Positions 2,124 through 33,362 of a stretch of DNA of 64,000 nucleotides are shown piece by piece (within the stretch, counting starts at the first letter, position 1; every line of letters starts with the position of its first letter). The notes below the pieces were generated by a model. That model did not search any database and was not told the origin of the DNA. It saw only the letters and a list, made by a program, of their open reading frames with translations. The position numbers and the translations under genes are program-made. The stretch comes from a virus: positions 15,772-79,771 of the IMG/VR virus record IMGVR_UViG_3300021469_000002; one strand, written 5' to 3'.

Positions 2124-2128
2124 GAAAA

Positions 2129-3593: not shown

Positions 3594-3602
3594 GGTGGTA
3601 TT

Positions 3603-3860: not shown

Positions 3861-3871
3861 GGAAGGATTTT

Positions 3872-5653: not shown

Positions 5654-5656
5654 AAA

Positions 5657-5953
5657 TCATCTCCTATTAAATATTAAAGTTTTTATTAAAAAAATTAACA
5701 TTAATATAAAATAAATAACTTCAATTAATGTTACTATGGTTTCTTCCATAAAATAATTCCATTCTAAAGGTCTATAAGTTAATACCCAACCGAGTTTTTC
5801 ATTTTTAAAACCAAAAAAACATATATCATAAATTGGTACTTTAAGATATAAACTAACCATTATATGCATAAGTTCGTGTAGAATAGAAGTTGATATAAAA
5901 AGATAAAAAAATATTAAAAATATTAAAATTTTGATATTTTTCTTTTCATTCAT
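5657..5953 (-). CDS. Small membrane protein with HExxH (M50-like zinc metallopeptidase motif)
   Basis: Two hydrophobic segments; ILHELMH. Confidence 0.55.
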   Translation of the reverse strand: MNEKKNIKILIFLIFFYLFISTSILHELMHIMVSLYLKVPIYDICFFGFKNEKLGWVLTYRPLEWNYFMEETIVTLIEVIYFILMLIFLIKTLIFNRR

Positions 5954-7531: not shown

Positions 7532-7784
7532 TATTCACCTCTTCAACTTTAATATTAAAATAACCATCCTCATTTAACATTTTTTTAAACCAATCAATTG
7601 CTTTTTCTAATCCATTATAACCAAAGCCACTACTACTACTAACAATTATTTGTGCACCTAACATATCGGCATCTGTTGAAATTTGCCAAGTTTTTTGTTT
7701 TTTATTTATTTCAACAAACAAATGAACAAGTTTTTCATTTCTTTTTCTATCAAACCTGATTAAGTTTGTTTGACTCATATTCAA
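7512..7784 (-). CDS. Hypothetical protein
   Basis: ORF in operon. Confidence 0.5.
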   Translation of the reverse strand: MNMSQTNLIRFDRKRNEKLVHLFVEINKKQKTWQISTDADMLGAQIIVSSSSGFGYNGLEKAIDWFKKMLNEDGYFNIKVEEVNNEVDKN

Positions 7785-8949: not shown

Positions 8950-9013
8950 TTTTTACACTCCTATATATTTTTTCCTTAATTTAACCTATCCTTTCGTAAA
9001 CCTTTACGGTTTT

Positions 9014-9865: not shown

Positions 9866-10038
9866 TTATTAACTCCTCTTTGATTTTTTTTGAAATTTCT
9901 TTCCCTTTTAAATCTTCAATTATTTCTATTACATCCTCTAAAGTTAGGGCTATATGATCCTTTAATTCTTCTGCCGTGAAATCAATAAGTTTATTTTTTC
10001 TATCTAATATTATTTTCATATTTCACCTCTATTTTTAG

Positions 10039-10094
10039 TTAAGAACGGATGTAGGGCTATGTGAGGGGCTTCTGTAATCCAAATCCGTTCTTAA
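10039..10094. repeat. Perfect 12-bp inverted repeat with 32-nt loop
   Basis: TTAAGAACGGAT (10039-10050) / ATCCGTTCTTAA (10083-10094). Confidence 0.85.
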
Positions 10095-10097
10095 TTT

Positions 10098-10841
10098 CTA
10101 CTTGAGTTTGGAAACGATTTTTTCCAAACCTTTACTAAAATCATCTTCCTTTTTTGAAATGGTAGGTTTCTTTTTCTTTATTATTGCCTCAAACAATTCA
10201 TTAGTGTATTCATCTTTAATGTCTTGTAATTTTATGTTTCTTGTTTCTTTTTCTATGCTTTCCAATAAAAGTAATGCATTATTCACATCTTTTTGTGAAA
10301 CATCTACAGGTTTTAATGGTGTTGGCGTTCTAATTTGTTCTACATAAATTAATTGAAGCAAAACAAGAAATTTACCAAAAGGTTCTACTAATCCTATGTG
10401 TTTTCTGTTTCTTATAAAGTAATCTATTAATAATGTTTTGTTTCCCTTAATCAAAGCATTTAATAATATAAAGTATCCTTTTTCAAACTTGGCTTTTGGT
10501 ATCAAATAGTATACTTTGTCTATTAAATATTTCATTTGGTTTGTGTCTTTATTGTTCAAAACCTTTAAAACCTTACAAGATTTATCCTGTTTCTCTTTGA
10601 TATAATTTATTAATTCTGAATCAAAGATTATTTTGTTGTCTTTGTTTATTTTATATGCTTTTTTTAACTCATTATATTGAATTTCCTTATTACATTTTTC
10701 GCACCATCTTTTTATTTTTATGTCGTGTCCCTTTGAACATACATTACTGAAATTAATTGTTTGATAATCCGCAAATCCCGAAATTGCTAATGGTAAATTT
10801 AACATTCCAAACTCAAGATTAATGGTTCCTAAACTTTTCAT
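10098..10841 (-). CDS. ku: Prokaryotic Ku (DNA end-binding) protein
   Basis: N-terminus LEFGMLNLPL...INF...IKIKRWCEKCNKEI.YNELKKAY, YYLIP and late DEYT match the Ku core. Confidence 0.82.
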   Translation of the reverse strand: MKSLGTINLEFGMLNLPLAISGFADYQTINFSNVCSKGHDIKIKRWCEKCNKEIQYNELKKAYKINKDNKIIFDSELINYIKEKQDKSCKVLKVLNNKDTNQMKYLIDKVYYLIPKAKFEKGYFILLNALIKGNKTLLIDYFIRNRKHIGLVEPFGKFLVLLQLIYVEQIRTPTPLKPVDVSQKDVNNALLLLESIEKETRNIKLQDIKDEYTNELFEAIIKKKKPTISKKEDDFSKGLEKIVSKLK

Positions 10842-14890: not shown

Positions 14891-15550
14891 ATGATGAACA
14901 AGCAAAAAGGTAATATGTATCCTTGGGTAACTCACACATGGAATGCTATTCGTGGAAAATGTCCATATGATTGTAATTATTGTTATATGAAAAATTTAAT
15001 AAAAAATAAAAAACTAAGATTAGAAGAAAAAGAACTTGAAACTGATTTAGGGCAAAATAATTTTATTTTTGTTGGTTCTTCTATAGATATGTTTGCTGAA
15101 ACGATTCCGAGAATATGGATTGAAAAAGTTTTGGCTCATTGTAGAAAATATCCAAATAACACTTATCTTTTCCAATCCAAAAACCCAAAACGCTTTTATG
15201 AATTTATTAAATTAAGAATGTTCCCCAAAAGAACTATATTAGGAACGACAATAGAAACTAATAGAAACTATGAAACAAAAGCTCCTCAGCCAAAAGAAAG
15301 ATATATGGCAATGAAAAATATTAAAGAATTTGAAAAAATGGTTAGCATAGAACCTATTATGGATTTTGATTTTAATATTATGGTTGGAATGATATATTTT
15401 ATTAGACCCAAATTCGTTTCAATCGGGGCTGATAGCAAAGGGCATAATTTACCTGAACCACCAAAAGAAAGACTTATTAAATTAATCGAAGAACTTACCA
15501 GATTTACTAAAGTTAAAGTTAAGGACAATCTTAAACGATTATTAATATGA
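14891..15550 (+). CDS. Radical SAM protein (phage Gp37/Gp68, DUF5131-like)
   Basis: TWN..RGKCPYDCNYCY, FVGSSIDMF, KNP.R, GTTIET, VSIEP. Confidence 0.8.
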   Translation: MMNKQKGNMYPWVTHTWNAIRGKCPYDCNYCYMKNLIKNKKLRLEEKELETDLGQNNFIFVGSSIDMFAETIPRIWIEKVLAHCRKYPNNTYLFQSKNPKRFYEFIKLRMFPKRTILGTTIETNRNYETKAPQPKERYMAMKNIKEFEKMVSIEPIMDFDFNIMVGMIYFIRPKFVSIGADSKGHNLPEPPKERLIKLIEELTRFTKVKVKDNLKRLLI

Positions 15551-16938
15551 GAACATTAGAACAAATTTTTGGAGATGAGAAAGAAGAAAAATTCCTACTA
15601 GATTGTAGATTTGATTTTGGTAAATGGGTTAGAAGAGTACATGGTTATCAATATAAATGGTTTCATAAAGAATGGGTTGATGCTCTTGAATCTAAAAAAA
15701 GGATAGCTATCCTAGCTCCTACGGGTTTTGGTAAAACAACAATACTTGCTGTATGTTATTCGATATGGAAAACTTTTTATAATCCTTATTGGCAGGGTTT
15801 AATAGTTTCTAATTCTGTTCCTCAAGCAACGAAAATAATAGATCAAATCAAATTTGAATTAACTGAAAATGAACTATTACAGCGTTTAATTCCTAGTTAT
15901 TCTCAATTAACTTGGAGCAAAACAGAAATTTCTACAGCCACTAAAGGAAAAATATTTTGCAAACCTTATGGTGAAAGTGCAAAAGGAGTGCATGTAGACT
16001 ATGTTTTATGCGATGAGGCTTCATCTTATCGTGACCATAATATATTTTTTCGGTATATAGTAACAAGAGCAACAGCAAAAAGAGGTTGTGTTGCTGCAAT
16101 CTCAACGCCTGTAAATGAAACTGATTTAATGATTTCTAAATTAATGAAAAACCCGGAATACTGGCACAAGGCATACCCTGCTATACAAAATGGAAAATCT
16201 ATATGGCCGGAAAGATTTCCATTAGAATGGCTAAGAAAAAGAGAAGCGGAGATTGGTAAAACAGCATTTGCTCAACAATATTTATGTAGAATAGTGCCTG
16301 AATCAGAAGAAATTCCATTTCCTATGAATTTATTAATAAAGGCACATGATTTGAATTTAAGATTTATGGATAAAAGACCAGAAGGAGATACTGATCCTTA
16401 TTATGTTGGTTGCGACTTTGCTCTTGCTATAAAGGGAGATTGGTCTGCATTTGTAGTTGGTAAGAAAAGAAAAGATAATAAAATTCAAGTCGTTAAGATA
16501 TTTAGATTTAGAGGAATGTTGCCATCAGCTCAAATGGAAGTTTTAAGAAGTATTAATAATAATTATCAACCCAATAGGATGCTTTTGGATAAATCTAATT
16601 TTGGAGAAATGTTTGTTAGAGATTTAATAGCAGAAAATCTTCCTGTAGTTGGTTTTCCATTTACACAGGAAAATAGAAACTCGGCGTTTGCAAAAGCTAT
16701 AACATTATTCAATGAAGGTAATATAATATTGCCATATAGTAAAGAGGAAACTCCAACATCAAAAATGATTGACAGACTAGAACACGAATTAACTCATTTT
16801 GTTGTTGATAAGACACCAAGAGGATACGCAACATATAAAAGTTTATCTGATTATGATGATGTAGCTATTGCTTTTATATTAATGGTTAAGGCGGCATCGG
16901 AAGAAAGAAAGTTTTTATCATACATGAGGGCTAGGTAA
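15547..16938 (+). CDS. terL: Terminase large subunit
   Basis: Walker A APTGFGKT, Walker B VLCDEA, nuclease GCDFA...DDVAIA. Confidence 0.92.
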   Translation: MRTLEQIFGDEKEEKFLLDCRFDFGKWVRRVHGYQYKWFHKEWVDALESKKRIAILAPTGFGKTTILAVCYSIWKTFYNPYWQGLIVSNSVPQATKIIDQIKFELTENELLQRLIPSYSQLTWSKTEISTATKGKIFCKPYGESAKGVHVDYVLCDEASSYRDHNIFFRYIVTRATAKRGCVAAISTPVNETDLMISKLMKNPEYWHKAYPAIQNGKSIWPERFPLEWLRKREAEIGKTAFAQQYLCRIVPESEEIPFPMNLLIKAHDLNLRFMDKRPEGDTDPYYVGCDFALAIKGDWSAFVVGKKRKDNKIQVVKIFRFRGMLPSAQMEVLRSINNNYQPNRMLLDKSNFGEMFVRDLIAENLPVVGFPFTQENRNSAFAKAITLFNEGNIILPYSKEETPTSKMIDRLEHELTHFVVDKTPRGYATYKSLSDYDDVAIAFILMVKAASEERKFLSYMRAR

Positions 16939-17042: not shown

Positions 17043-18320
17043 ATGGTTGTACTGGACTTCAATTCTATTAGAGGTATTTTTAAGGGTTCTCAAAGACAAG
17101 TAATCCAGACTCTAGCAATAAGAAGCAGTGCAGGCGAAACGAAGACAATAAAATCAGATGAAGAAGAAATAAAAAGAGTTTCTCCGCTTGATTTAGAAAC
17201 AATATATATTAGAGAAGGAATGGTTTATAATTGGATTAATAAATTTGTTGAATCATTTCTTTCTTCCGATTTCAGAATTAATACATCTAATACAAGAGAA
17301 CGCAGAATAATGGAAGATTTTTTAAGAGCTTCAGATTTTAGAAATTTATTAAAAACTACTGTTGCTCATATGTTGATTTACGGGAATGCTTTCTGGGAAA
17401 AAATAACTAATGATGGACCTAAAATTCTTGCTGTTACATGGATTGATCCAAAAAGTATGGATGTTAAAAGAACATCAATGGGTAAAATTATTTATGATAT
17501 GGATGGTAAACCAACGGCTTATGTGCAATATGTTAAATGGAATGTTGACACTTCCAAAGTTCCAAAAGAAAGATTAATACAACAACAGCCAATGTTTTCT
17601 TATCAAAGCGGAAAAGGTATACTTTTAAAAAGAGAGGAAATTGTTCATTTTACTTTAAATACTGTGGGAGATTCTTGGTGGGGGGTTGGGTTAATTGAAC
17701 CAATATATAATATAGTTAGGGTAAAACAAAACGCTGAAGCGGGATATGCAGAAGCTATTCAAAGAGTTGCTTATCCAAGAATATGGGTAAGAATTGGAGA
17801 TGAACAACATCCGCCAACACAAGAACAAATAGATGATGTATGGAATCAATTAAAAGGATTAGAAACAAAACATCAGTTTGTAACGCCATATTATTACAAT
17901 CCACAAATTCTTGAATCAAAAAGGGTTGAAAGATTAGCACAAAATTTAAAATATTTTTCTGATCAAATAGTTGCAGGTTTGGGAGGACCAAAACCGTTTA
18001 TTACTGGACTAGGTACAGATACAAATAAGGCAACATTAAATGATCAAAAAATATTATTTGAAAGACAGTTAAAAGCATTACAAGAGCAAATTAGTCATAC
18101 CATAATGAAAAATGTGTTTGCTGATATAGCAAAACAGTATAGATTTCGTTCTGTTCCTGTATTAGTTTGGGAAGAAATTTCTACAGAAAGTTTAGACAGT
18201 AAAGCAGATAGACTGGTTAAATATGTTAATTCTGGATTGCTTATTCCAGACAAGGAAATAAGAAATATAGTAAGACGGTCGGAGAGATTACCGGAGGAGC
18301 CCAACGATATTCAAAAATAA
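17043..18320 (+). CDS. Portal protein
   Basis: Follows terL; IYGNAFWE, EIVHF, WWGVGLIE, TNKAT patterns of portals. Confidence 0.85.
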   Translation: MVVLDFNSIRGIFKGSQRQVIQTLAIRSSAGETKTIKSDEEEIKRVSPLDLETIYIREGMVYNWINKFVESFLSSDFRINTSNTRERRIMEDFLRASDFRNLLKTTVAHMLIYGNAFWEKITNDGPKILAVTWIDPKSMDVKRTSMGKIIYDMDGKPTAYVQYVKWNVDTSKVPKERLIQQQPMFSYQSGKGILLKREEIVHFTLNTVGDSWWGVGLIEPIYNIVRVKQNAEAGYAEAIQRVAYPRIWVRIGDEQHPPTQEQIDDVWNQLKGLETKHQFVTPYYYNPQILESKRVERLAQNLKYFSDQIVAGLGGPKPFITGLGTDTNKATLNDQKILFERQLKALQEQISHTIMKNVFADIAKQYRFRSVPVLVWEEISTESLDSKADRLVKYVNSGLLIPDKEIRNIVRRSERLPEEPNDIQK

Positions 18321-18332: not shown

Positions 18333-18473
18333 ATGAAAAAAATATCAGGCGTTTTCATCTCCAGAATGTTAAAAGAGGTTTTGGAAATTAGAAATTCCCT
18401 GGATTCACTTGATGCAAAGTTGGAGAACCATTTAAATAATTGTTGTGATGAAAATGCCAAGGAAAAAAAGTAA
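18333..18473 (+). CDS. Small coiled-coil protein (46 aa), partial paralog of next gene
   Basis: IRNSLDSLDAKLENHLNN vs IREKIDDLDKKVDAHINN in 18445..18762. Confidence 0.4.
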   Translation: MKKISGVFISRMLKEVLEIRNSLDSLDAKLENHLNNCCDENAKEKK

Positions 18474-18762
18474 TTCAGGAGAAGCTTCAATATCTGCCTT
18501 ATTTACACATATAACTTATATTAGAGAAAAAATAGATGATTTGGATAAAAAAGTTGATGCTCATATAAATAATTTTGAAAATTGTAGAAGGGAACATAAT
18601 AAAATAATAAGTAATCATAATGCTCGACTTCAAAAACTTGAAGATTGGAAATATTTTGAAGAAAATCAATGGCAAAGAAAAGTTCAAAAACACGGTTTAT
18701 TAGTTGGGATATTGGCTATGATTGTTTCGGCTATTATAAGTATATGGAGTTTGGTGCATTAA
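18445..18762 (+). CDS. Coiled-coil protein with C-terminal TM helix
   Basis: Heptad pattern then GLLVGILAMIVSAIISIW. Confidence 0.6.
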   Translation: MMKMPRKKSNSGEASISALFTHITYIREKIDDLDKKVDAHINNFENCRREHNKIISNHNARLQKLEDWKYFEENQWQRKVQKHGLLVGILAMIVSAIISIWSLVH

Positions 18763-18763: not shown

Positions 18764-21700
18764 ATGAAATTAACGATTTTAGGTTCGGGTCCTACTAAAC
18801 CCGTTATGGGTAAAGGAAAGAATAGACGTAGGAATAGTTCTATGCTTTTACAAACAAGAAACGGAATTAATATTCTTTTTGATTGCACTCCTAATTTTTA
18901 TGAACAAATGCAAACCTTTGCTGATAATATTAATAGAATAGATTATATTATTATTAGCCATGGTCATGCAGATGCAATTGGTGGAATACCGCAATTAAAA
19001 CATTGGCTACAAGAAAAGAAACAAGAAGATAAACCAATTGTATACATGGAAAAAGAAACCGAAGCCAGAATAAGAGAAAAGTTTAAAGACATTGAACATA
19101 TTAATATAAAAAATTTTACCCCGTACAAAGTTTTAAATTTAGACTATCTAAAAATAGTTCCATTTAGGGTAATACACGCTGAGGCATTTCCAACAGGTCA
19201 TAAATTTCCATGCGTAGGATTCAGAATTGATAATAAAGTTGTATATGCTGAAGATATGGAAAAAGCACCAGAAAAGTCTATACCATATTTTGATAAATCT
19301 CATGTAATTATTATCGATGCAGCGATGTGGTTTGGAAAAAGTATTAGAGGACATATGAATATAGAAGAAGCATTACAATTTGTTAAAAAATTTAAAACTA
19401 GGAAAGTTGTTTTCACACAAGCAGGACACACTTATCCTGATTATGTAACAGCTTTAAAAGAAATTAAAAAGCGTTGGAAAGAAATAGGCGGAAGTTCAAA
19501 AGTTGATATTGAATTAGCTTATGATGGTATGGAAATTAATATACCAGATTATTTCCAAAAAATAAATGATTATCTTATTGAGTTAAGAGAGGGAATATAT
19601 CTTCCTGCTCCTCATGCAGAATTGCTTTGGAAAGGAAATAAGAAATATATTGTTAAAGCAAAAAAATATTCAAAAATGTTAGACAGGCTTCTTTATGTTT
19701 GTGATCAAAAATACGCTTATGCAATAATTAAATTAAAAAAGCCATTTATGATTAATCTCGAAGAATTTAATAAGTATAAACCAAAACATCTTGTTAGTAA
19801 TGAAGAAAGAAAGAAATGGTGGGGTAATAAAAGGTATTTATTTCTTTATCCATTTGATATAGTTGAAAAATTCAAAAAACCTAAAGAAATTAAAGTTGAA
19901 CGAGGAGTACAAACTTTCATAAAGAATGTTAAATTTTTAGCAGAACTCTCTACTATTGAACTTATTGAGGATGTCGCAGAATATGACCCACATACTGTTG
20001 GTAATGCACAGTTGGCTGATGATTGGAGAATTGTTTGTGCTTGGTATGCAACCAAGAAAAAAGGAGGCAAAATTAAATTTTCATTAGAAACTATAGTAAA
20101 TTTAGCAAAACTAATTTATGATGAAATAGTTAAAAGAGTTAAAAGAGGAGATATGAAACATGAGTTTCAGCCAGAAAAAATGACTCCATTTTCAAAACAA
20201 TTATATGATATAGTTTCTCAAAATAAAATTATTAAAACACCAGAAGAAGAATGTAAAGATACAGAATATACTGTAGATGTCGAGGAAGTAAAGCCCTTAA
20301 TAGACCAATTTAAAGAGTTTAAAATAATTAAAGATTTTATTTCAATTGTGGGTTCGACAGTCAAAAGAGAACCGGGTCATAAACCAAATGATATAGATTT
20401 GCATATTCGTTTAAGAACGCCACCAGATTATATTAAACGAGCAATAGAAGTAAGAATACTAAAAATGCTTCCAGCAGAGATTGCAAATAAAATTCATTTT
20501 GTATGGGGAGATCCAGAGGGTTCACATGATTCTTTTATTCCTCTTTATGATCTTGCATTAGTAAGGACAGAACCAAAAGTTGTTGAAATGAAAGATACAA
20601 CAACAGCTCAAGTTCCTGAACTTCTTCCAACTGTTTGGATTGTTGGAAAAAAAGTTAGGGTTAAAGACAAAATTGGAAAAATAAAAGAAATAAAAAAAGA
20701 ACCAAAAATATATATAATTGAATTTGAAGACGGAACAACCATAGAAGCAAAAGAGGAAGAACTAAAAGCTATAGATTTTATTCCTCTCAAACCTTTTTTA
20801 CCTCTTAAAAGCACATCTATATATAACAAAACAAAATTTTATGATCTTAAAAAAATAATAGAAGTACTTAATCCTAGTGAAGAAAATCTTTATATAGTTG
20901 AAGAAAAATTTGATGGTTTTAGAGGGGTATTACATAAAAAAGGAAATAAAGTAAAAATCTTTTCGGATCAAGGAAAAGATATAACTGATGCTTTTCCTAC
21001 AATATGTGATCAAGCACTTGATTTAACAGCAGAAGATATTATACTTGATGGGGAAATTGTTCCTTATGATAAAAAAGGAAGATCTTTGGGAAGAAGAGGA
21101 TTAATGGAGTTCATTGGAGCAATTAGATCAGGCAAAAAATTAGATGATTCGAATATTAAATATCATGTCTTTGATATTCTTTATTATAAAAATAAATCTT
21201 TACACGATGCCAGACTTTATGAAAGAAAAAAAGTACTTAACCTATTAAAATTCACAAAAAATATAGTCAAAGTTCCATTTGTTGTTGTTGCTAATAAAGA
21301 ACAATTGGAAAAAGCAATAAAATTATTCAGGGCTTTACCAAAAAGCGAAGGTGCGATGATAAAGGCTTATAATTCTACTTATCCAGTTAGTGGAAAAACT
21401 CCTTTCTGGATTAAATTTAGAAACGCAAGAGATATTCATGTCAAAGTTTTAAAAGTTTTGCCTGTTAAAGGAACAGAAAATGCTTGGAGATATATGTGTG
21501 GCATTGAAATTCCAGAAAAAAAAATTAAAGAATTTAATCCTGATAAACTTATGAAATATAATTCAAAAACCTATATGGTTTTTGGCAATACATTTAATAC
21601 TTCTGTAAAAGCAAAAATTGGAGATATCATTGATGTTGATGTTCAAGAAATTTGGAAACATGTTGGTCCTAAAGGAATACATTATAGCTGGCATAAACCC

Positions 21701-23584
21701 GATGTTCGATTTCTATCTGAAAGAAAGACTACTTCAACAATAGCTGATTTAGATGCAATAGTTGATGCTATAGGAGTTTTGGTTAAAGAATATGGAGAAG
21801 AAGCAATTTTAAAAGAATTTGAATTAATGAAACAAGAATTAAAAAAAATAAAAGATGAAGGAGAAACTAGAGCAGAATATGCAACCAAGTTTTGGGCGTC
21901 TCATTGGTGGAAATCATATCCAAAAACAGGAAAAGGTAAAATGGTCTACCAACATCATTGGAGAGGGTTGACAGAAGAAGAAGCAAAATGGGATGAAGAA
22001 AAGTTATTACAAACTGATAGAAGCGTTCATGGTGATTTAAGAATGCAGTTTAATCCTAATACTTTATTTGGTTTTACGATATTCTTAGGCGAAGTAGAAG
22101 ATTTAAGAAAAGGAAGGGATTTATGGAATCTTAAAGAGCCAGATAAATTGCAAGGAACATGGAAACTTTGGCAGCCTTGTATCTCGGAAGATTCTTTTGT
22201 GATAAAAAATCAAAATATAATTCAGGCTAAAGAGCTTCATATAGGCGATAAAATTTTGGATGCTAATGGCGTTTTTAGTCCCATAACTTCAATTGATGAA
22301 ATAGAAGACAACGAACAGTATTTGATTAAACCAAGTTATGGCTTACCTATCCAAGTGAGTAAATTGCATCCGTTTTTAGTTAACGGGTTAAGCGAAAGCC
22401 ATACATTAGCACTGCTTTCACACAAGAAAAGAAAGATAATCAAACATAATTGTTTGCCCGTTTGGAAAAACGCAAAAGACTTAAAGATTGGCGATATATT
22501 ACTTTTCCCTAAGTTAAAAATTAAGAAAATTAATTATATTGGCACTTATGAAGAGGGAAAAATAATCGGATTCTTTCTTGGAGATGGGCATTTGTTTAGA
22601 GCTGGAAAAGATTATAAAACTCTATATTGTGCTTTAACCTTTAATGCAAAAGAAGATATCAATTCATATAAGAACTTGCTGAGAAAAATGGGTGTCCATA
22701 GCTGGATTTCCAGCCCCCCATCTGCAAAAAATACAAAAAATCTGGTATTTACATGTAAAGGAAGAATCAAAGATCTCATATTTCAGGTTTTTGACAAAGA
22801 AAAACAAATACCGCACAAATATTTGTATGCAAATAAAAAATTTATTAAAGGTTTGATAGACGGGTTAGTGGATTCTGATGGATATGATAAAAACAATCGA
22901 AGGTTCATAATTAATACATCAGCTTCAATAATAAATGGAGCTGTTTTATTGTTACATCGGTTAGGTCATATTCCAAGTATCCGTTATAGAGAGAACAGTG
23001 ATGTTGGCTTTAGGCTTCGTAAAAAGAAAAGCAAATTAAAAAAAGTTTTTGAAATAAGTTGGACTAAAAAACCAAAACATAAAAATTGGTTTGATTATGA
23101 AAATTTTTACGGTTTCAGGGTCAGACATATAGAAAAAGCAAAACCCAAAAGGTTATTGAATATAATCACGAAAAGCCATACATTATGCTCCCCCTATTTC
23201 ATTATGCATAATTCCGCGTGGTTAGATGTCGGCAAGAAAAAACCTTATGTATCAAAACCATCTGAAGTGGGAGCAACTCCAAAAAAATATGCAAAATTTT
23301 TTGCTGAAGATTGGGGTACATATGAAATTGGTGTATGGAGAGAGCACTTTTTTGAGTTTTTCTTCCATGGAAAAAAATTAAAAGGTAGATATTTGATTGT
23401 GTATGCTCCTGTGGGAGAAGGAGGAAGAAAATGGTTAATTGGAAAACCAGCAGATCAAACTCCTTATGCTGATAAACATAATATAGAAGATATAATAAAA
23501 GAATTAAAAATGAAAAAACAAGAATGGTTAATTTGGGCAAAACCTGGTGTCAAACCCAAGCTTATTAATGTGAAAAGGCGTTAA
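18764..23584 (+). CDS. Multidomain nucleic-acid end-processing protein: MBL hydrolase + ASCH-like + Pol-beta-like NTase + SH3-like + ATP-dependent DNA ligase + LigD-type 3'-phosphoesterase (intein-containing)
   Basis: ILGSG/SHGHADA/GH/AYDG; PHAELLWKGNKK; VGS...NDIDL; EEKFDGFR/LDGEI/FDIL/EGAMIK/WIK; YQHH...HGDLR...DWGTYE...HGKKLKGRY. Confidence 0.8.
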   Translation: MKLTILGSGPTKPVMGKGKNRRRNSSMLLQTRNGINILFDCTPNFYEQMQTFADNINRIDYIIISHGHADAIGGIPQLKHWLQEKKQEDKPIVYMEKETEARIREKFKDIEHINIKNFTPYKVLNLDYLKIVPFRVIHAEAFPTGHKFPCVGFRIDNKVVYAEDMEKAPEKSIPYFDKSHVIIIDAAMWFGKSIRGHMNIEEALQFVKKFKTRKVVFTQAGHTYPDYVTALKEIKKRWKEIGGSSKVDIELAYDGMEINIPDYFQKINDYLIELREGIYLPAPHAELLWKGNKKYIVKAKKYSKMLDRLLYVCDQKYAYAIIKLKKPFMINLEEFNKYKPKHLVSNEERKKWWGNKRYLFLYPFDIVEKFKKPKEIKVERGVQTFIKNVKFLAELSTIELIEDVAEYDPHTVGNAQLADDWRIVCAWYATKKKGGKIKFSLETIVNLAKLIYDEIVKRVKRGDMKHEFQPEKMTPFSKQLYDIVSQNKIIKTPEEECKDTEYTVDVEEVKPLIDQFKEFKIIKDFISIVGSTVKREPGHKPNDIDLHIRLRTPPDYIKRAIEVRILKMLPAEIANKIHFVWGDPEGSHDSFIPLYDLALVRTEPKVVEMKDTTTAQVPELLPTVWIVGKKVRVKDKIGKIKEIKKEPKIYIIEFEDGTTIEAKEEELKAIDFIPLKPFLPLKSTSIYNKTKFYDLKKIIEVLNPSEENLYIVEEKFDGFRGVLHKKGNKVKIFSDQGKDITDAFPTICDQALDLTAEDIILDGEIVPYDKKGRSLGRRGLMEFIGAIRSGKKLDDSNIKYHVFDILYYKNKSLHDARLYERKKVLNLLKFTKNIVKVPFVVVANKEQLEKAIKLFRALPKSEGAMIKAYNSTYPVSGKTPFWIKFRNARDIHVKVLKVLPVKGTENAWRYMCGIEIPEKKIKEFNPDKLMKYNSKTYMVFGNTFNTSVKAKIGDIIDVDVQEIWKHVGPKGIHYSWHKPDVRFLSERKTTSTIADLDAIVDAIGVLVKEYGEEAILKEFELMKQELKKIKDEGETRAEYATKFWASHWWKSYPKTGKGKMVYQHHWRGLTEEEAKWDEEKLLQTDRSVHGDLRMQFNPNTLFGFTIFLGEVEDLRKGRDLWNLKEPDKLQGTWKLWQPCISEDSFVIKNQNIIQAKELHIGDKILDANGVFSPITSIDEIEDNEQYLIKPSYGLPIQVSKLHPFLVNGLSESHTLALLSHKKRKIIKHNCLPVWKNAKDLKIGDILLFPKLKIKKINYIGTYEEGKIIGFFLGDGHLFRAGKDYKTLYCALTFNAKEDINSYKNLLRKMGVHSWISSPPSAKNTKNLVFTCKGRIKDLIFQVFDKEKQIPHKYLYANKKFIKGLIDGLVDSDGYDKNNRRFIINTSASIINGAVLLLHRLGHIPSIRYRENSDVGFRLRKKKSKLKKVFEISWTKKPKHKNWFDYENFYGFRVRHIEKAKPKRLLNIITKSHTLCSPYFIMHNSAWLDVGKKKPYVSKPSEVGATPKKYAKFFAEDWGTYEIGVWREHFFEFFFHGKKLKGRYLIVYAPVGEGGRKWLIGKPADQTPYADKHNIEDIIKELKMKKQEWLIWAKPGVKPKLINVKRR
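22178..23212 (+). mobile_element. Intein with LAGLIDADG homing endonuclease (345 aa) in the phosphoesterase domain
   Basis: QP|CISEDS ... FIMHN|S; block B HPFL; GFFLGDG and GLVDSDG. Confidence 0.9.
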
Positions 23585-23793: not shown

Positions 23794-24972
23794 ATGAGTG
23801 AAGATTTACAATCGATTTTTGAGCATCCAATTGTACAACAATTAGCAGAAAAGGCGTGGAAGGATTTAGAATCAGAAGTAAAATTACCTTATATCTTAAA
23901 AGATAAAATTTTGATGTCTCCGGGCGTATGGAACAATTTTTATTATAGTCCAGAAGTTATTAGAAAAATTTTTAAAAACACTAATTGGGACGATCCAAAA
24001 ATTAGGGCTTTATTTTTAGATCACGTTGACGATAGAGCAGCGGAATGGATTGGAGAAGTAATTAATCCAAGATTAGTAAATGGTAATGTTATAGGTGACT
24101 TGGCTATATTAGACAAGCCGACAGCAATTAAATTGGCTTATGGAGCTAAGTTTGGTGTTTCACCCAAAGTTATCGGAGAAGCTGATTACAATAAAAAAAT
24201 GTATGACGGTCATTTTGAAAATTTTTCTGTTGTAATTAATCCTGCTGTTAAGACTACGTTTCTTAACAGCGAAATAAAAATAAAAAATAAAGGAGGAAAA
24301 ATAATGCCAAAGACTAAAGAAGAACTTCAAGAAGAAGAGTCTGAGGCATCCGAAGAAGCAGAAGAACCAGCAGAAGAACAAGAAGAAAAACAAGAAGAAA
24401 AACAAGAAGAAAAACAAGAAGAAAAAGCCGAAGAGCTTGCAGAAAAACTTGCAGAAAAGGTTGCTGAAATTCTCAAGAAAAAGAAATATGCATATCCAGA
24501 GGAAATGAAAAAGAAAAAGAAATATGAATATCCAGAAGAAATGAAAGAAGAAATAGCAAAATTAAAAGCAGAGATAGAGGAACTAAAAAAGAAGAAGAAA
24601 AAATATCCATATGAACAAAAAGCAGAAGAAAAAAATGAATTAAAAGAAGCAGTAGAAACTCATCTATCTGCTTATACAGACTTTATCAAAAAATTCTTGA
24701 AGAAATATCCTAAAGCAACATTAAAAGATGCAGCAAAAGCATGGGCTAAAGAGCATGGAGAATTAGAAGAAAAAACTTCAATAACTGTAGAAGACTTAAA
24801 AACAGAAATTGGCGAAATTGTAACGGCTAAAATGTCCGAGTTTGGTATTAAGCCAATAACAGTTGCAGCTAAATTCATTAATCCTCAGGCAGAAGGTTAT
24901 GTTGAGGAAGCAGAAGAGCATGAGCTTGACCAAGCAATGTTTGATATGATTAAACAGGGGGTGGAAAAATGA
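23794..24972 (+). CDS. Prohead protease fused to scaffold protein
   Basis: PGVWN, LFLDH, IGEV, GVSP, SVVINPA protease-like N-terminus; E/K-rich C-terminus; precedes capsid gene. Confidence 0.75.
   Translation: MSEDLQSIFEHPIVQQLAEKAWKDLESEVKLPYILKDKILMSPGVWNNFYYSPEVIRKIFKNTNWDDPKIRALFLDHVDDRAAEWIGEVINPRLVNGNVIGDLAILDKPTAIKLAYGAKFGVSPKVIGEADYNKKMYDGHFENFSVVINPAVKTTFLNSEIKIKNKGGKIMPKTKEELQEEESEASEEAEEPAEEQEEKQEEKQEEKQEEKAEELAEKLAEKVAEILKKKKYAYPEEMKKKKKYEYPEEMKEEIAKLKAEIEELKKKKKKYPYEQKAEEKNELKEAVETHLSAYTDFIKKFLKKYPKATLKDAAKAWAKEHGELEEKTSITVEDLKTEIGEIVTAKMSEFGIKPITVAAKFINPQAEGYVEEAEEHELDQAMFDMIKQGVEK
24379..24426 (+). repeat. Tandem repeat (CAAGAAGAAAAA)x4 encoding QEEK
   Basis: Four exact 12-nt copies. 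Confidence 0.9.
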
Positions 24973-25982
24973 GAACAATACAAGAATTAGCTGATACCAC
25001 GACATCCCATAATACAGACCTTTTAGCAAAAAGATGGTTAGATAAAATAATAGATTCAGCAAGAAAAAAGATGTTCTTTTTGAGTATTGTTAGTCAATAT
25101 GATGTGCCTCCAGGAACCAAAGACATAGTAATTCCATATAGAAAAGGTTATTGGAGCACTCTTGGAACTACAGTAACTGATACTACTACAGAAGGGACAT
25201 CAGTAGTTTTCACAGCAATGAATAATTTGGAAGGTTTAACATTAACACCGTCGCCACATTCCTATGGTATAGCAATATCCAATCACGCAATTAGAACAAC
25301 AGCAACCAATTTAATTCAGGCTGCAAGAGAAGAATTAAGTGATTACTGGGCAGATGTTGTTGATAAAGCCATAGCTGCAGCAATTAATGGAGCCCCCGTA
25401 GCAACTTCTTCAGCAAAGGGTGCTTCTGAATTATTTGGCGGAGATGCAACCTCGACATCAACATTAGAAGCTGGGGATATTTTAACACCATCTCTTATAG
25501 TGAAGGCAAAAGCAAGATTACAAGGAACAAAAATGTATTACTGGTCCGGGGGATCTGAATCAGTTTCAAATGAATCTAAAACGCCTTGGTTCTCTGAACC
25601 TAATTCACCTTTTGTAATTTTCATAGGACCAGAACAGGAATACGTTTTACTAACAGATAGTCAGTTTACTAATGCAGCCGAATATGGTGGTAATGAAATA
25701 GTTCTTAATGGGGAAATAGGAAAGTATCAAGGAGTTAAAGTAATAACATCAGTTAATACTACAGCAGCATCGAATTGGGGTTCAGGAGGAAATTTAGCAG
25801 GACACAACTGTTATGTGGTTAAAGCAGGAGTATGTGCAGCATTAGCTTGGGGACAAAGACCAAGACTTAGAGTATTCGAATATCCAAGTGAGTTAGAAAC
25901 AAGATTAATACTTGAACAAGCATATGCAGTAGATTCGCTTCATAACGATGCCATTTGTCATATAAAGGTTTTAGATGAGTAG
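24969..25982 (+). CDS. Major capsid protein (HK97 fold)
   Basis: Position after protease/scaffold, 337 aa, NGEIGKYQGVKVI motif. Confidence 0.85.
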   Translation: MRTIQELADTTTSHNTDLLAKRWLDKIIDSARKKMFFLSIVSQYDVPPGTKDIVIPYRKGYWSTLGTTVTDTTTEGTSVVFTAMNNLEGLTLTPSPHSYGIAISNHAIRTTATNLIQAAREELSDYWADVVDKAIAAAINGAPVATSSAKGASELFGGDATSTSTLEAGDILTPSLIVKAKARLQGTKMYYWSGGSESVSNESKTPWFSEPNSPFVIFIGPEQEYVLLTDSQFTNAAEYGGNEIVLNGEIGKYQGVKVITSVNTTAASNWGSGGNLAGHNCYVVKAGVCAALAWGQRPRLRVFEYPSELETRLILEQAYAVDSLHNDAICHIKVLDE

Positions 25983-27827: not shown

Positions 27828-30800
27828 ATGAAAAAGAACAAAAGGATATATTGGGAAAGCGTGAAGAAGTGGGCAATATCAGTAGGACTGGGAAGCGTTC
27901 CTCTCGTGATAGTTCTGTTTATCTATTTGTCTTATGCCAACATCATCACGATTCACGATTACAATTGGAGTAGAGTTTGTGGCGGAACGGTAGACGACCC
28001 TTGCTGGGCGACAGTTACCTTTACCGCCAATTCGGATTTCTACTTGTATCCGCTTGGTTACGACCCTTACGGTAGAAATACGCCTTTCAACTTTTCCAAG
28101 GCGGTTAAGGATTGGAAATTGTATAGGAAATGGGGAGACGGTTGGCGAGAAATAGACCTGAATGAAGGTTGCACGGGAAGGTGGTGCGGTTGTTATTGGT
28201 GCAAAGGAGGGAAAACGGCTAAATATTCTTATGCTTTCAGGTCGGGGAAAAATTATACAATCAAGATTGTAGCTTATAAAAAAGATGCTTTCGAAGATGT
28301 CAAATGGAGTTTTGGCTTCCCGAAAGATAATCGGACATATATAGACCCTGTTTGGCGGAGAGCGGGAGAATACAGGCTAACCGAAATCGCTGGCAGGAAG
28401 TATACTCCGCAGTGCTTGTCTGATTGCCATTTGCCCATCGAACTTAAATTCTATAAAGATTACAAATTTGACAAACTCGATATGCTGATTAGAAAGGGAT
28501 CGAGTGAGTTTGCCGACTGGGGAATTGACTATTTAGTAATTGAAAACTACACTGTGACGATAAGTAATTGCACATATAAATGTAGAAATATCACATTCGC
28601 AAACGGAACGATTGGGCAGGATTGTAAAGCGATTTGTAACCCTTACAACACTGCTAAACAAAGATACATATGGAAACCACTCAAAACACTTAATGTAAAA
28701 GCAAACAAACCTATTATAATAGATTTGTGGGGAAGAAGAAAGGCAAAATTAGGCAATATTGTGGTAGATGTTGTGCCGAAGTTAGCGGATTTCGAGTTGG
28801 CAAAATTGAGTTGGTGGAATTCCTCTTGGGAACGAAAAAGACCAATAAACCTGTCTGTATCCAGCGGAAGCACACCAAAAGGTTATCAAGTAAAACTAAA
28901 TATAACCTACGATTCCGATATGCAAACAGATTTTGACGATTTGAGATTCGTGAACGGTTCTGAAAACACAGAACTGCCTTACTGGGTTGAAGAAAAATCC
29001 AATGGTGAATGGGCTGTAGTATGGGTTAAAGTAGACCAGAACATAACGACAGACAATTATACAATCTATATGTATTACGGCAATCCTTCGGCAACTTCAG
29101 AAAGCAATGGCTCAGCAGTTTTTGAATTTTTCGATGATTTTAGCGGAGATTTAAGCCAGTGGGAACAAGTAGGTGCTGGCACGGCAAGTATTGTAGAGGA
29201 TGCAGATGCCTATAATGGTGATGCATGTAAAATATCACCCGGCACCGGCGAAAGAACTTTGTGGATATCTACGACTTTCGATGGAAACTATGCTGTTGAA
29301 ACAAGAATGAAAGGCAACAAATACTTCCGTGTTTTCATGAGGGGACAAGATAAAACTGCCTTGAGAGAGGCTATTGCTGATTTCCACAGCACGAACGATA
29401 TTACAAATATGATATACGATTATATAGATGGTGTGTCTATTGCAATAGGAGGAACCGGTGATAAAGACTGGACAGTATATCATCGTGAATCTATGAGAGC
29501 ACAGGGATTAAATTATTATTGGTATTTGGATGGAGAGCTTTATATTAGCGGGACTGATTCTGGAGCCTCCCAGCCAACTTCAGGTTATATAGGTATAAAT
29601 TCGCAGCAAAACGATGCTTTTTTTGATTTTGTTGCTATCCGCAAATACACTTCTCCAGAACCATCATATTCGATAGGCGGGGAAGAATCGATTGCACCAA
29701 TCATTATTATAAACTCACCACAAAACACCACTTACATAGATATAGGCGCTACTATATCTATTCCAATTAACTTCACTGTTTACGGCAATATTTCTACTTA
29801 CCAAGTTAAAGTATACGCAAACGGGTCAGAAATTTATTCAAATGATAACTATGCAAATAACACGAACACGCAAATTGAACGCGATTGGTATGAAGGTAAC
29901 CAGAATGTTACAATATGGGCAAATTCTTCAGAGGGTGTTGAATCAACGAAAACAGTGCTGTTTACTACAAGATTGTGTTCAGCATCGTCTGATTGGCTTA
30001 ACAACAGTTTTGCTAAAAGAAAAGGTATTTGTATTTTAGAACAGTCTAGTAATAACTTAACGAATTACTCAATTGCTATTAATATATCTTACGATTCCGA
30101 TATGCAAACAGATTTTGATGACTTGAGATTTAGTTGGTATAATGAGTCATTTGGAAGCGAAATAGAAACACGTTATTGGGTTGAAGAAAAATCTGATGGT
30201 GAATGGGCAGTAGTATGGATTAAAATTCCTTCTATTCCAGCAGATTCATTACAAACAATTTACATGTATTATGGAAACCCGAATGCAACCTCAGAAAGCA
30301 ACGGCTCAGCGGTTTTCGATTTCTTCGATGACTTCGAAGATGGAGATTATAGTGATAAATGGACTTTAATAACTGGAACAGCATCGGAAACAAATGGATA
30401 TTTAGAGGTTAGTTCCACCTCTTCAATTGAGGGTTTAATTGAAGAAAATGTAACGCAGTTTTCAGATACAAACGGCTTTGTTGTTGAAGGCAAAATTATG
30501 CAAGTTACCACAAACGATTTAGGCGAGATTCTCTTTCACGGCGATTTAACAAAAGACAATTACTATATATTTGTAGTGGGTTATAATGATAAATTAATAA
30601 TTGATAAACAGGTAGGAGGCTCGGGAACTAGTTTAGCTCAAGTTTCACAAGTTATTAATGAAAATGTATGGTATGATTTCAGAGTTACAAGAAAACCAGA
30701 TGGAACTATTATCGGCGAAATTATCGGAGTAAATTCTGTGTCTGCTACCGACACAAGTTTGACAAGCGGATATGTGGGAGTTAGGGTAGGCGGAAAGTTT

Positions 30801-33362
30801 TCAGACACTTGCAGAGTGGATAATTACCGAGTCCGCAAATACGCAGAACCAGAACCAACATATTCGATAGGAGAGGAAGAAACATCATTATCTACTTGTT
30901 CGAATATAACTTCTTCAGGAATATATTATTTAACTGTTAATATAATAAATTCATCGACTTCTTATTGTATGAATATTTCTGCTAATGATGTAACTTTAGA
31001 TTGTCAAGGGAATACAATAGATGGAATAGATAATTCTGACACATATGGCGTTTATGCTTCACGCTCAGGTTGGCAAGTAGCAAACATAACAATTAAAAAT
31101 TGTATTATAACAGATTGGGATGAAGGAATACATCTTGCTTATACAAGCGAAGTTGATATTTTGAATAATACAATTTCATCAACTATAAGTTATGGAATAT
31201 ATTTATATTATACTGGTTATGAGGGCCCAGGAAATATTAAAATATCAGATAATGTCATATCAGATACAGGAAATGATGGTATGAATCTGTATCCATATTT
31301 TACTTATTCGAATATTACAAATAACACTATTTTATCTGCGGGACAAGACGGTATAACAATATTTACCGGGGGTGATTATAATATTATAGAAAATAATACA
31401 ATTGAAAATGCTGTAGCAAATGGGATTTGCTTCGGCGGTAGTGATAATAATACAGTAAGAAACAACATTATTCGTGGTTGTAATTATTCAATCAGATTAG
31501 TAAACAACCCCCAAGATAATTTTATTTATAATAATCTATTTAATAACTCTGGAGATATTAGTTATGTTGCGATATATGGAAATAATTGGAATACAACATA
31601 TCAATCTGGAACAAATATTTGGAATGATAGTTTAGGTTATATTTGGGGAAATGCTTGGTTCAAACCTGATGGAACTGGATTTAGCGAGGTTGAATGTAAT
31701 GATATTAATCCGGTAGATGGTTTTTGTGATAGTCCTTATGAATTAGCACCAGATAATATAGATTACCACCCAATAGCAAAAGAGTATGGAATGGTAGCAG
31801 ACATAGATCCACCAACATTCTCAAATTGGCAACAAGACCCGTTAGACATAAATTCAAGCACTATAGGGAAATTGTATGTAAATGTTACCATAACAGACGA
31901 ATCTGGTGTTAATGCATCGAGTGTTAGATTTTATCATTGGATAAACGATTCGCAATACCCGAACCAACCGTGGAAGTTTATAAATGGAACTGCACAGGAA
32001 TTTGTTCACGAGCATACTATGACCAACATCACGGATGTATTTAACATAACCCTTCATACATACGCATACAATCCATCTGTTTTTAATGTAGACCCAGAAA
32101 CAATGGCTTCAGCAACAAAATATAACTATTCGTTGGACTCAAATAATAAAGCACTAAAGGTTAGATTCTATAACATATCAACACATCCAAATACAACTTA
32201 TATTTTGAAAGCAAGACTGCATAAAATCACAGGAGATTTAATAGTTTATTATTGTAACAGTTCTTACACAAACGGCAAAATATATAACTCTGATTATTGT
32301 GTGCCATTAACTACATTAATATCTCAAGATGAAACGCATTACTACCAAAATATTTACTTTTACGGAGATGAAAATTCATATTTGGATGCAGTTCAAATAT
32401 CAGAAACAGGATTCATAGTATTTTATCCTGTAATTGGTTCGGATTGGGAAGTTGAATATGCAAACATAGATTCAAACTCTGTGGAGACAACAACAAGTGG
32501 AGGAACATCATGGACTAATCAAGATTTCACTCCAGATGTCTGGCTTATACAAATTAATGGAAATGGATTGACAACATTTAGTTATAAAGTTTATGCCTGT
32601 GATATGTTGGAAAACTGTGGCAATTCAAGTGTTCAAGAAGATTCATATGCAATAGCAAACTTGCCACCATCACCAGCACCAAAAATAATAATACCTGGAA
32701 ATGACACATACAGCGGAGTGTTTAACATAACCTGGGAACCATCCAAAGACCCCAATAGTGACCCGTTCAACTATTCACTTTACCTTTACTACGCAAACGG
32801 GACTTTGGCAGATGTTTTAGCAGACAACAACATACCTGAAGGAACAGAATATTACACTTTCGATTCGACAAACTATCCGAGTGGTCAATATTATTTAATA
32901 GCAAACGCAACTGATGATGCTGGTAATACGAATTTTTATATACTGCCGTATTATTTTACAATTGGTGCACCCGATATGAATATAACATTTGGCCCACCCC
33001 AAACCTCAATTTTCAGATGGGCAGTTAATGATTCTGGATATGGTTGTGGTCCGGACTATACATCTTATTGGGTTGAGCCAAGAAATCAAACTGATGTTTA
33101 TGGCATATTTTGGATTTGTAATAATGGAACAATTTCAGGAGGTGTTCAAGCAAAATTATCTGGAACGCCGAATACTGGTTGGAGTATAATGTTCACTAAA
33201 GATAATTCATCTGCTATTGCTGATGCTATTGCTATGACTACAAATTATCAAACAATTTATTCAAATTTAGGTGTTAATGAATGTATTTATACATGGGGGT
33301 ATGCAAATTGTACTCAGGTTTCTGCAAACCCAGGAGTAAATATAGAATTTGATATAATTTAG
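27828..33362 (+). CDS. Giant adhesin/surface-type protein: N-terminal TM, two DUF2341-like domains, NosD-like beta-helix, Ig-like domains
   Basis: Duplicated YDSDMQTDFDDLRF...IYMYYGNP...FFDDF; NNTI-type beta-helix repeats; frequent NxS/T sequons. Confidence 0.8.
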   Translation: MKKNKRIYWESVKKWAISVGLGSVPLVIVLFIYLSYANIITIHDYNWSRVCGGTVDDPCWATVTFTANSDFYLYPLGYDPYGRNTPFNFSKAVKDWKLYRKWGDGWREIDLNEGCTGRWCGCYWCKGGKTAKYSYAFRSGKNYTIKIVAYKKDAFEDVKWSFGFPKDNRTYIDPVWRRAGEYRLTEIAGRKYTPQCLSDCHLPIELKFYKDYKFDKLDMLIRKGSSEFADWGIDYLVIENYTVTISNCTYKCRNITFANGTIGQDCKAICNPYNTAKQRYIWKPLKTLNVKANKPIIIDLWGRRKAKLGNIVVDVVPKLADFELAKLSWWNSSWERKRPINLSVSSGSTPKGYQVKLNITYDSDMQTDFDDLRFVNGSENTELPYWVEEKSNGEWAVVWVKVDQNITTDNYTIYMYYGNPSATSESNGSAVFEFFDDFSGDLSQWEQVGAGTASIVEDADAYNGDACKISPGTGERTLWISTTFDGNYAVETRMKGNKYFRVFMRGQDKTALREAIADFHSTNDITNMIYDYIDGVSIAIGGTGDKDWTVYHRESMRAQGLNYYWYLDGELYISGTDSGASQPTSGYIGINSQQNDAFFDFVAIRKYTSPEPSYSIGGEESIAPIIIINSPQNTTYIDIGATISIPINFTVYGNISTYQVKVYANGSEIYSNDNYANNTNTQIERDWYEGNQNVTIWANSSEGVESTKTVLFTTRLCSASSDWLNNSFAKRKGICILEQSSNNLTNYSIAINISYDSDMQTDFDDLRFSWYNESFGSEIETRYWVEEKSDGEWAVVWIKIPSIPADSLQTIYMYYGNPNATSESNGSAVFDFFDDFEDGDYSDKWTLITGTASETNGYLEVSSTSSIEGLIEENVTQFSDTNGFVVEGKIMQVTTNDLGEILFHGDLTKDNYYIFVVGYNDKLIIDKQVGGSGTSLAQVSQVINENVWYDFRVTRKPDGTIIGEIIGVNSVSATDTSLTSGYVGVRVGGKFSDTCRVDNYRVRKYAEPEPTYSIGEEETSLSTCSNITSSGIYYLTVNIINSSTSYCMNISANDVTLDCQGNTIDGIDNSDTYGVYASRSGWQVANITIKNCIITDWDEGIHLAYTSEVDILNNTISSTISYGIYLYYTGYEGPGNIKISDNVISDTGNDGMNLYPYFTYSNITNNTILSAGQDGITIFTGGDYNIIENNTIENAVANGICFGGSDNNTVRNNIIRGCNYSIRLVNNPQDNFIYNNLFNNSGDISYVAIYGNNWNTTYQSGTNIWNDSLGYIWGNAWFKPDGTGFSEVECNDINPVDGFCDSPYELAPDNIDYHPIAKEYGMVADIDPPTFSNWQQDPLDINSSTIGKLYVNVTITDESGVNASSVRFYHWINDSQYPNQPWKFINGTAQEFVHEHTMTNITDVFNITLHTYAYNPSVFNVDPETMASATKYNYSLDSNNKALKVRFYNISTHPNTTYILKARLHKITGDLIVYYCNSSYTNGKIYNSDYCVPLTTLISQDETHYYQNIYFYGDENSYLDAVQISETGFIVFYPVIGSDWEVEYANIDSNSVETTTSGGTSWTNQDFTPDVWLIQINGNGLTTFSYKVYACDMLENCGNSSVQEDSYAIANLPPSPAPKIIIPGNDTYSGVFNITWEPSKDPNSDPFNYSLYLYYANGTLADVLADNNIPEGTEYYTFDSTNYPSGQYYLIANATDDAGNTNFYILPYYFTIGAPDMNITFGPPQTSIFRWAVNDSGYGCGPDYTSYWVEPRNQTDVYGIFWICNNGTISGGVQAKLSGTPNTGWSIMFTKDNSSAIADAIAMTTNYQTIYSNLGVNECIYTWGYANCTQVSANPGVNIEFDII

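Follow-up and report, generated by a model that had tools for sequence, protein, structure and literature searches.

The 64,000-nucleotide stretch analysed here (the window) comprises bases 15772-79771 of the 79,771-base IMG/VR record IMGVR_UViG_3300021469_000002, which CheckV rates as complete. Its head module contains one open reading frame (ORF, P0001) at 18764-23584 on the forward strand, and we find that the product, a modular multi-enzyme protein of 1606 aa, is a real, long member of an undescribed family of head-module repair proteins. Judging from profiles and conserved motifs, the family is a large one, with a core made of a nucleotidyltransferase-like (NT-like) domain, an ATP-dependent DNA ligase and a LigD-type 3′-phosphoesterase (PE). 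When 1.84 billion cluster representatives were searched with a profile of the NT-like domain, 860 clusters matched at E ≤ 1e-3, so the family touches many uncultured viruses. We found no account of it in the literature when searching for ligases encoded in phage head modules or joined to prohead proteases. The ORF opens with ATG and runs in a single frame without an internal stop. A preliminary description of this DNA had reported a single ORF and a set of motifs, and every motif was found where it had been placed: HGHADA at aa 66 (nt 18959), GS at aa 530-531 (nt 20351), DID at aa 543-545 (nt 20390-20398), KFDG at aa 715 (nt 20906), QHH at aa 1063, HGDLR at aa 1089, DWGTYE at aa 1516 and GKKLKGRY at aa 1536. 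Full-length homologues with the same domain order occur in independent assemblies (P0004, P0005, P0007, L004, L005 and L012). Coordinates of the domains given below are all on the forward strand.

The ligase (20849-21778) matches PF01068 with an E-value of 3e-28 (99-103 bits against a cut-off of 26.2), its adenylation domain covering aa 696-885 with K715 in the KFDG motif. Motifs I (K715, KFDG), III, IIIa, IV and V could be aligned to the archaeal ligase 4eq5 (DGEIV, FDILY, EGAMIK, WIKFR), and the type is closest to archaeal replicative and non-homologous end joining (NHEJ) ligases. The C-terminal part of the ligase gave no match to a Pfam OB domain. This part (aa 886-1005) is conserved, and its invariant H977-K978-P979 resembles motif VI; from these residues it is presumably the OB domain.

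The PE is split by an intein. Its N-extein (aa 1030-1138, 21851-22177) holds H1065, H1089, D1091 and R1093, and its C-extein, together with a family-specific C-terminal helix and hairpin (aa 1484-1606, 23213-23581), matches PDB 3p43 with an E-value of 0.017. The intein of 345 aa (aa 1139-1483, 22178-23212), a feature beyond the domain list of the preliminary description, has the expected Cys1 (C1139), block B (S-K-L-H, aa 1199-1202), terminal H1482-N1483 and +1 residue (S1484), with LAGLIDADG motifs at aa 1269 and 1364 and a Pfam LAGLIDADG_3 score of 35.3 bits against a cut-off of 22.5. Eight intein-less orthologues are contiguous across the junction. The insertion lies precisely in the PE active-site strand, between QP and SAW, and could gate the activity. 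It may be noted that an orthologue from a metagenome (P0018, 1172 aa) has an intein at another PE site, just ahead of the first catalytic His; the different positions indicate two independent insertion sites in the family.

When the two PE halves were scanned separately, no Pfam match was found (the intein splits the domain) and 3p43 was weak among PDB sequences; a whole-protein profile and a PE-only profile likewise gave no significant PE match against PDB sequences. The assignment comes through an intein-less orthologue (L002:11695-12408), to which the window exteins are 56% (N) and 70% (C) identical. Its AlphaFold2 (AF2) model has a pLDDT of 92.9, high also in the C-terminal stretch, and the top seven Foldseek matches are all LigD PEs (3p43, 3n9b, 3n9d, 5dmp, 3p4h, 2lj6), with a target TM of up to 0.78. 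In Pfam, LigD_N (PF13298) is reached by P0018 (42.4 bits against a threshold of 31.1), and by P0002 and P0006 only at E 0.07-0.08. The PE active site consists of six residues, which in CkoPE are the Mn ligands H9, H15 and D17, the phosphate-binding R19 and H51, and Y55 of 'DHPxxY' (PMC3082917). Fourteen homologues share H1065, H1089, D1091 and R1093 without exception, and the HxDxR segment aligns to 3p43 and 5dmp. The spacing between the two His residues is 24 instead of 6, i.e. about 18 residues are extra. The LigD-type 3′-phosphoesterase of the preliminary description is thus borne out by the fold of the intein-less orthologue and by four retained active-site residues, and the ATP-dependent DNA ligase by PF01068 and motifs I-V.

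Ahead of the ligase lie five further domains. The first (aa 1-262, 18764-19549) is a metallo-beta-lactamase (MBL) fold phosphodiesterase domain of PhnP/RNase Z type, with matches to Pfam Lactamase_B_2 (PF12706, E 4.5e-24, 85.6 bits against a threshold of 27), PHROG 392 (metal-dependent hydrolase) and NCBIfam MBL/RNase Z/PhnP models. Among solved structures the nearest is 3py5, a PhnP-like nucleotide-binding protein (E 3.7e-15), in agreement with the PhnP-like domain with a degenerate motif described earlier. Instead of trimming DNA ends, the domain may act as a phosphodiesterase on nucleotides or cyclic phosphates. For aa 263-690 an AF2 model was built with 17 aligned relatives and is confident per domain. 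In this model an ASCH (PUA-like) barrel, predicted to bind nucleic acid, occupies aa ~274-394 (19583-19945), with Foldseek probability 1.0 to TTHA0113 (2dp9), ZmASCH (5guq) and YqfB, and VIA Z of 11.7 (rmsd 3.3 over 119 residues); a Pfam ASCH match was seen only in the orthologue P0013 (E 0.061). The helical domain D3 (aa 399-500, 19958-20263, model helices aa 414-499) had no convincing match in the fold searches of this model, whose lists contain only ASCH and Tudor matches; it is present in 88 of the 166 annotated family proteins (see below) at varying positions, i.e. it is a mobile module. A Tudor/KOW/SH3-like small barrel follows the NT-like domain at aa ~617-675 (20612-20788), with VIA Z of 7-8 to Tudor domains (rmsd 1.6 over 51 residues) and Foldseek probability 1.0 to the PHF1/PHF19 Tudor, and is restricted to the closest relatives, L001 and L002. 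Both the ASCH-like domain and the SH3-like module proposed earlier are therefore recovered as folds, the latter as a Tudor/KOW-type barrel.

The NT-like domain itself (aa ~506-612, 20279-20599) has a strand-helix pattern and a GS...DxD motif (G530-S531...D543-x-D545) that is invariant across 14 relatives. Its matches to minimal nucleotidyltransferases are weak (PDB 1no5 at E 0.9, NTP_transf_2 at E 0.005 in the relative P0108, ESM Atlas 0.92), and it was barely sampled in the fold-match lists of aa 263-690, which ASCH and Tudor fill. Of the Pol-beta-type nucleotidyltransferase proposed earlier, the motif stands and is the Pol-beta nucleotidyltransferase signature; the assignment of the domain itself is tentative, and we name it NT-like at the level of the motif. 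It is the common denominator of the family.

The position of the ORF is that of a head gene. TerL (15547-16938) lies upstream of the portal gene (17043-18320, +; Pfam Portal_Mu and Phage_portal, PHROG 9232 with E 5.5e-30), and a 105-aa ORF with a hydrophobic C-terminal helix (18445-18762, +) ends 1 nt ahead of the ATG of the large ORF. Downstream, a 392-aa gene (23794-24972, +) has a conserved N-terminal domain of ~135 residues (aa ~30-165) with invariant D76-H77 and S123, followed by an E/K-rich scaffold-like tail. Its ESM Atlas leads are prohead proteases of S78/S77/DUF2213 type (TM 0.6-0.67), and it is most likely a protease-scaffold protein. The major capsid protein (MCP) gene comes next (24969-25982, +; PHROG 1357, E 5.8e-15). 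The placement between portal and protease given in the preliminary description thus holds. That description also pointed to this slot as the place of MuF-type minor head proteins; the MuF domain (PF04233) is absent from the protein and has no match at E ≤ 0.1 in the whole 79.8-kb genome. Because no MuF is found elsewhere in the genome, the large ORF fills the MuF slot without being MuF.

This slot is kept among relatives. A word-indexed search gave 24 metagenome homologues of 888-2105 aa, in several of which the MBL domain is followed by an inserted D12 adenine methyltransferase, and scans of IMG/VR gave 15 distinct related loci. At 11 of the 15, TerL and/or portal precede the protein and the MCP and/or a counterpart of the 392-aa gene follow it, which answers the question of homologues in the portal-protease position. 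Three further loci are partial, showing the protease/MCP side only (L011, L014) or the TerL/portal side only (L001), while L003 (an ASCH-only match on a giant-virus contig) and L017 have no head-gene neighbour. TerL identity to the window ranges over 25-84% across the related loci, and the start codon frequently overlaps or abuts the portal stop. In one relative (L007, 11591-13960) the MCP (aa 456-788) is fused to ~455 N-terminal residues in a 789-aa ORF, a possible scaffold/protease-MCP fusion. The window member is the longest architecture seen and is particular in its combination of MBL, ASCH, helical and Tudor domains, in the intein of the PE strand and in the presence of Ku in the genome.

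A second line of evidence comes from fusions to the prohead protease, which are known from protein sequences alone. We scanned 49 of the more distant NT-domain members with Pfam and found DNA ligase in 19, Peptidase_S78_2 (XkdF) in 14, Peptidase_S78 in 7 and SAM methyltransferases in 9, with single members carrying Acb1 and 2H/LigT phosphoesterases. Single-protein layouts include S78 protease with NT, NT with XkdF, and NT with ligase and, further on, XkdF. The fetched proteins were also annotated with hidden Markov models (HMMs) made from the domains of the family, which gave 166 proteins with a domain match, one of them being the window's own protease. Among the 166, the NT-like domain is present in 163, the ligase in 99, the PE in 71, and ligase and PE together in 63. 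The prohead protease is found in 36 of 165 relatives, and in 18 of these NT, ligase, PE and protease form one chain. P0018 (MBL-PE) and P0104 (NT-ligase-helical-ASCH) likewise end in a domain like the window's downstream protease. When the window's portal, MCP and downstream protease/scaffold were compared by phmmer with every fetched protein, no match emerged. Prohead proteases act inside the procapsid, so that enzymes fused to one would be inside as well. Being comparative, the fusions suggest loading into the prohead, for which they are the best evidence and better than position alone. A complex prediction with the protease domain of the downstream gene (aa 1-175) and the NT-like domain scored 0.00 and carries no weight either way.

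The genome also encodes, on the reverse strand, a Ku homologue of 247 aa (10098-10841; Pfam Ku, E 1e-22) and beside it a second, minimal ATP-dependent DNA ligase of 283 aa (9014-9865; PF01068, E 1.3e-30). A virus-encoded Ku adjoining its own ligase is unusual, and it is possible that the viral Ku is the end-binding partner of the large protein. These two genes are co-oriented with a 399-aa ORF without a Pfam match (7750-10841 for the three together).

From the gene order and the fusions, we consider it an evenly poised proposition that the protein enters the prohead and accompanies the DNA, its PE and ligase cleaning and sealing 3′ ends or nicks. The steps would be as follows. The intein would splice out and restore the PE barrel; the protein, made late, would enter the prohead with the protease/scaffold, and the protease may cut it into pieces. 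It would then stay with the packaged DNA and act on the viral genome during delivery or immediately afterwards, when the Mn-dependent PE would strip 3′-phosphates or 3′-ribonucleotides and the ligase, possibly pre-adenylated and thus good for one ATP-free round, would seal nicks or join ends. The small barrels and ASCH would hold the nucleic acid, and the viral Ku may hold the ends, while the MBL domain would process phosphodiester or cyclic-phosphate ends, or cyclic-nucleotide signals. In sum, this would leave the genome whole or circular and safe from host exonucleases at a stage when host or early viral enzymes cannot yet be called upon. A more far-reaching form of this reading is tentative, and we lean somewhat against it: archaeal tailed viruses and many uncultured phages would load a heal-and-seal kit (ligase, LigD-like 3′-phosphoesterase, small nucleotidyltransferase and, here, MBL) through the protease/scaffold, release it in the head and eject it, the ends being joined within seconds, here with the viral Ku, as an NHEJ-like, host-independent establishment or anti-nuclease step. 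If true, this would be a new route for securing a genome at entry by circularising it, sealing its nicks and undoing nuclease cuts. For the window's member, the NHEJ-like reading can be put to the test because Ku is encoded alongside it.

Several points weigh against loading and action at infection. Packaging is inferred from gene order and fusions; ejection and action at infection are proposed. Ku occurs in just 1 of the 15 related records besides the window, these records being mostly fragments (9-78% complete), and is not an obligate partner of the family. In the PE, His51 of CkoPE maps by spacing to Q1137 of 'QP|SAW' (Q1137-P1138 / S1484-A1485-W1486), a position that is non-conserved (Q/E/I/G) in relatives, with the Pro and Trp of this segment invariant; an hhalign alignment to a Methanosarcinales PE places the His51 region elsewhere with low confidence and is ambiguous. 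Since the phosphate-binding His is not located, the PE activity may differ from that of LigD: the modelled fold and the metal site are those of a PE, and the chemistry may be altered. In the MBL motif HGHADA the final metal-binding His of HxHxDH is replaced by Ala, which is also found at this position in both relatives whose N-termini were inspected (2 of 2); the remaining ligand positions aligned to 3py5 are kept (H146, D164, H197, H222). The modules are split or reordered in four relatives: L002 and L001 have them as MBL-ASCH-helical-NT and Tudor-ligase-PE, L010 is split elsewhere, and L013 has ASCH-helical-NT-ligase followed by MBL-PE. Since the ligase-PE half of L002 has no NT-like domain, no single anchoring domain is evident, and the comparison of arrangements indicates that the protein is a modular fusion, one of several arrangements, rather than a proven polyprotein. 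Lastly, the final 126 nt of the record (window 63875-64000) are an exact repeat of its nt 4-129, inside a region of ~34-nt repeats. The assembly is circular or terminally redundant, although IMG/VR labels the record as linear. The 126-nt overlap is uninformative on cohesive ends and fits terminal redundancy, in which case end joining would be superfluous.

Among the alternatives, the one to be taken most seriously, though we judge it unlikely, is that the protein is expressed late and matures DNA in the cytoplasm, at the packaging machine, without being ejected. It would clean and seal nicks, gaps or RNA-primer remnants in concatemers before or during packaging, and would be encoded in the head operon only for timing and for closeness to portal and terminase. 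T4 offers an analogy, as its packaging needs ligase-sealed DNA and endonuclease VII binds the T4 portal. The late-operon position with its coupling to the portal gene is the same under this alternative, the D12 methyltransferase between modules in relatives fits a modification of DNA before packaging, and the genome encodes an RNase HII in its early/replication block (4896-5537, −; Pfam E 1.8e-32); moreover, the presence of the large protein in the virion is deduced rather than measured. The fusion to the prohead protease in more than a fifth of the relatives counted above, however, puts the enzymes inside the prohead and not outside it, and the second ligase beside Ku could already serve replication and maturation.

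Decidedly improbable, in our estimate, is a counter-defence effector of the polyvalent kind, directed against host immune signals and RNA, in which the MBL domain would be Apyc1-like and the other modules would repair nuclease-cut tRNA or RNA, or reverse nuclease damage generally. The MBL domain is weakly similar to Apyc1 (PDB 7u2r at E 0.0014, limited to the first 75 residues) and to phosphodiesterases that degrade cyclic nucleotides, a ribonuclease (ZmASCH) and an RNA-base amidohydrolase are among the proteins of ASCH fold, and the Acb1, 2H/LigT phosphoesterase and methyltransferase domains of distant NT-domain relatives are typical of counter-defence. But the Apyc1 score (PF23023) is far below its curated cut-off (17.9 against 50 bits), the ligase belongs with the DNA ligases, its nearest counterparts being archaeal replicative and NHEJ ligases, no 5′-kinase domain, which classical RNA repair needs, was found in the protein, and the Ku of the genome points to DNA ends. 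We regard as very improbable an assembly chimera, a multi-gene read-through or a selfish insertion without a head role, for which one could cite the same content in two ORFs of the close relatives L002 and L001 (contig pieces from public runs are short and none spans the ORF, which neither supports nor refutes a chimera), because many independent assemblies likewise have this domain order within one ORF (to those named above P0009 and L008 may be added), and the slot is kept over deep divergence with the catalytic residues invariant.

Compared with known systems, the protein works like LigD but is not LigD. As in LigD and the split archaeal NHEJ set (Ku, Lig, Pol and PE, with the stand-alone PEs 3p43, 3p4h and 5dmp; PMC3082917), an ATP-dependent ligase is joined to a 3′-end healer of PE fold, the Mn-binding His-His-Asp and the Arg are kept, and Ku is encoded in the same genome. 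In contrast to LigD, the protein has no match to an archaeo-eukaryotic primase (AEP) polymerase (LigD_Prim-Pol), a small Pol-beta-like NT domain standing in its place, and the domain order is NT-ligase-PE. The PE, too, differs by the insertion between its His residues, by extra N- and C-terminal elements and by the phosphate-binding His, which was not identified. Finally, the protein is viral, encoded in a head module, and has MBL, ASCH and Tudor-like additions.

The closest published case is ANMV-1, a virus of ANME-1 archaea (KP703175, L018 in our set). Two adjacent genes at 1913-5800 are of interest: the one annotated as 'MutT-like phage hydrolase' is a homologue of the portal (25% identity to the window's, E 6e-5), and the gene directly after it, annotated only as 'ATP-dependent DNA ligase', encodes an 866-aa fusion of NT-like domain, ligase and PE (PE HMM E 2e-13). 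This protein lacks the MBL, ASCH, helical and Tudor modules and the intein, and is ~25-32% identical to that of the window. The earlier statement that the combination is not recognised from any described virus therefore calls for a qualification, as the NT-ligase-PE core was already present in the published ANMV-1 under the name of a ligase.

The family also resembles the polyvalent proteins of phages and conjugative elements described by Iyer et al. 2017 (PMC5512222) and the MuF/SPP1 gp7-type proteins, being a large multidomain protein of a portal-terminase virus in the after-portal slot beside virion genes, and its relatives carry methylases and phosphoesterases as polyvalent proteins do. 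It differs in having no MuF, ArdC-N or other hallmark domain, its link to the capsid being the prohead-protease fusion of the relatives. Iyer et al. 2017 mention RNA ligases only, with no DNA ligase/LigD-PE theme (PMC5512222).

A particle that brings its own ligase together with enzymes for end or base repair has a conceptual parallel in CroV and ASFV (Cafeteria roenbergensis virus and African swine fever virus), whose virions carry DNA repair enzymes. These viruses belong to another realm and use other enzymes, and their packaging has been shown by proteomics, whereas for the window protein it is a deduction. Should the particle indeed carry the enzymes, they would make up the first DNA ligase and end-repair kit known to us from the capsid of a tailed virus.

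The virus is a tailed, uncultured one from a hydrothermal vent, with a host that is probably archaeal. The whole stretch is present in two hydrothermal-vent metagenome runs, a possible source, and no RNA run was among the sequencing runs that match it. The cellular relatives of the ligase domain are mostly from DPANN and Methanosarcinales archaea, and the nearest classified capsid protein to the window MCP is that of an Altiarchaeum virus (35% identity), in which an S77 prohead protease lies just before the MCP, the same slot as that of the 392-aa gene. No tRNA genes were found in the window and no SSU rRNA in the record. A practical interest of such a virus is in compact, possibly thermostable ligase-phosphoesterase fusions.

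Other genes may be mentioned briefly. A DUF5131 gene lies upstream, on the TerL side of the head module. A protein of 1844 aa (27828-33362, +), with two DUF2341 modules, NosD and a right-handed beta-helix, lies in a region of higher local GC (0.40) and is probably a tail fibre or depolymerase. The only match to LigD_Prim-Pol (AEP, PF21686) in the genome is in a 780-aa protein (51733-54075, −) at 18-19 bits, below the cut-off; this protein is probably the replicative primase-polymerase. A Cas4-like nuclease (54632-55288, −) is below threshold, and a calcineurin-like metallophosphoesterase (59845-60597, +; Pfam E 3e-9) is another possible end-processing enzyme. A TnpB/IS605 OrfB-like protein (62459-63616, −), with a Cas12f1-like TNB domain at E 6.9e-23 and overlapped by a 404-aa ORF on the forward strand, looks like a transposon-type nuclease within the viral genome.

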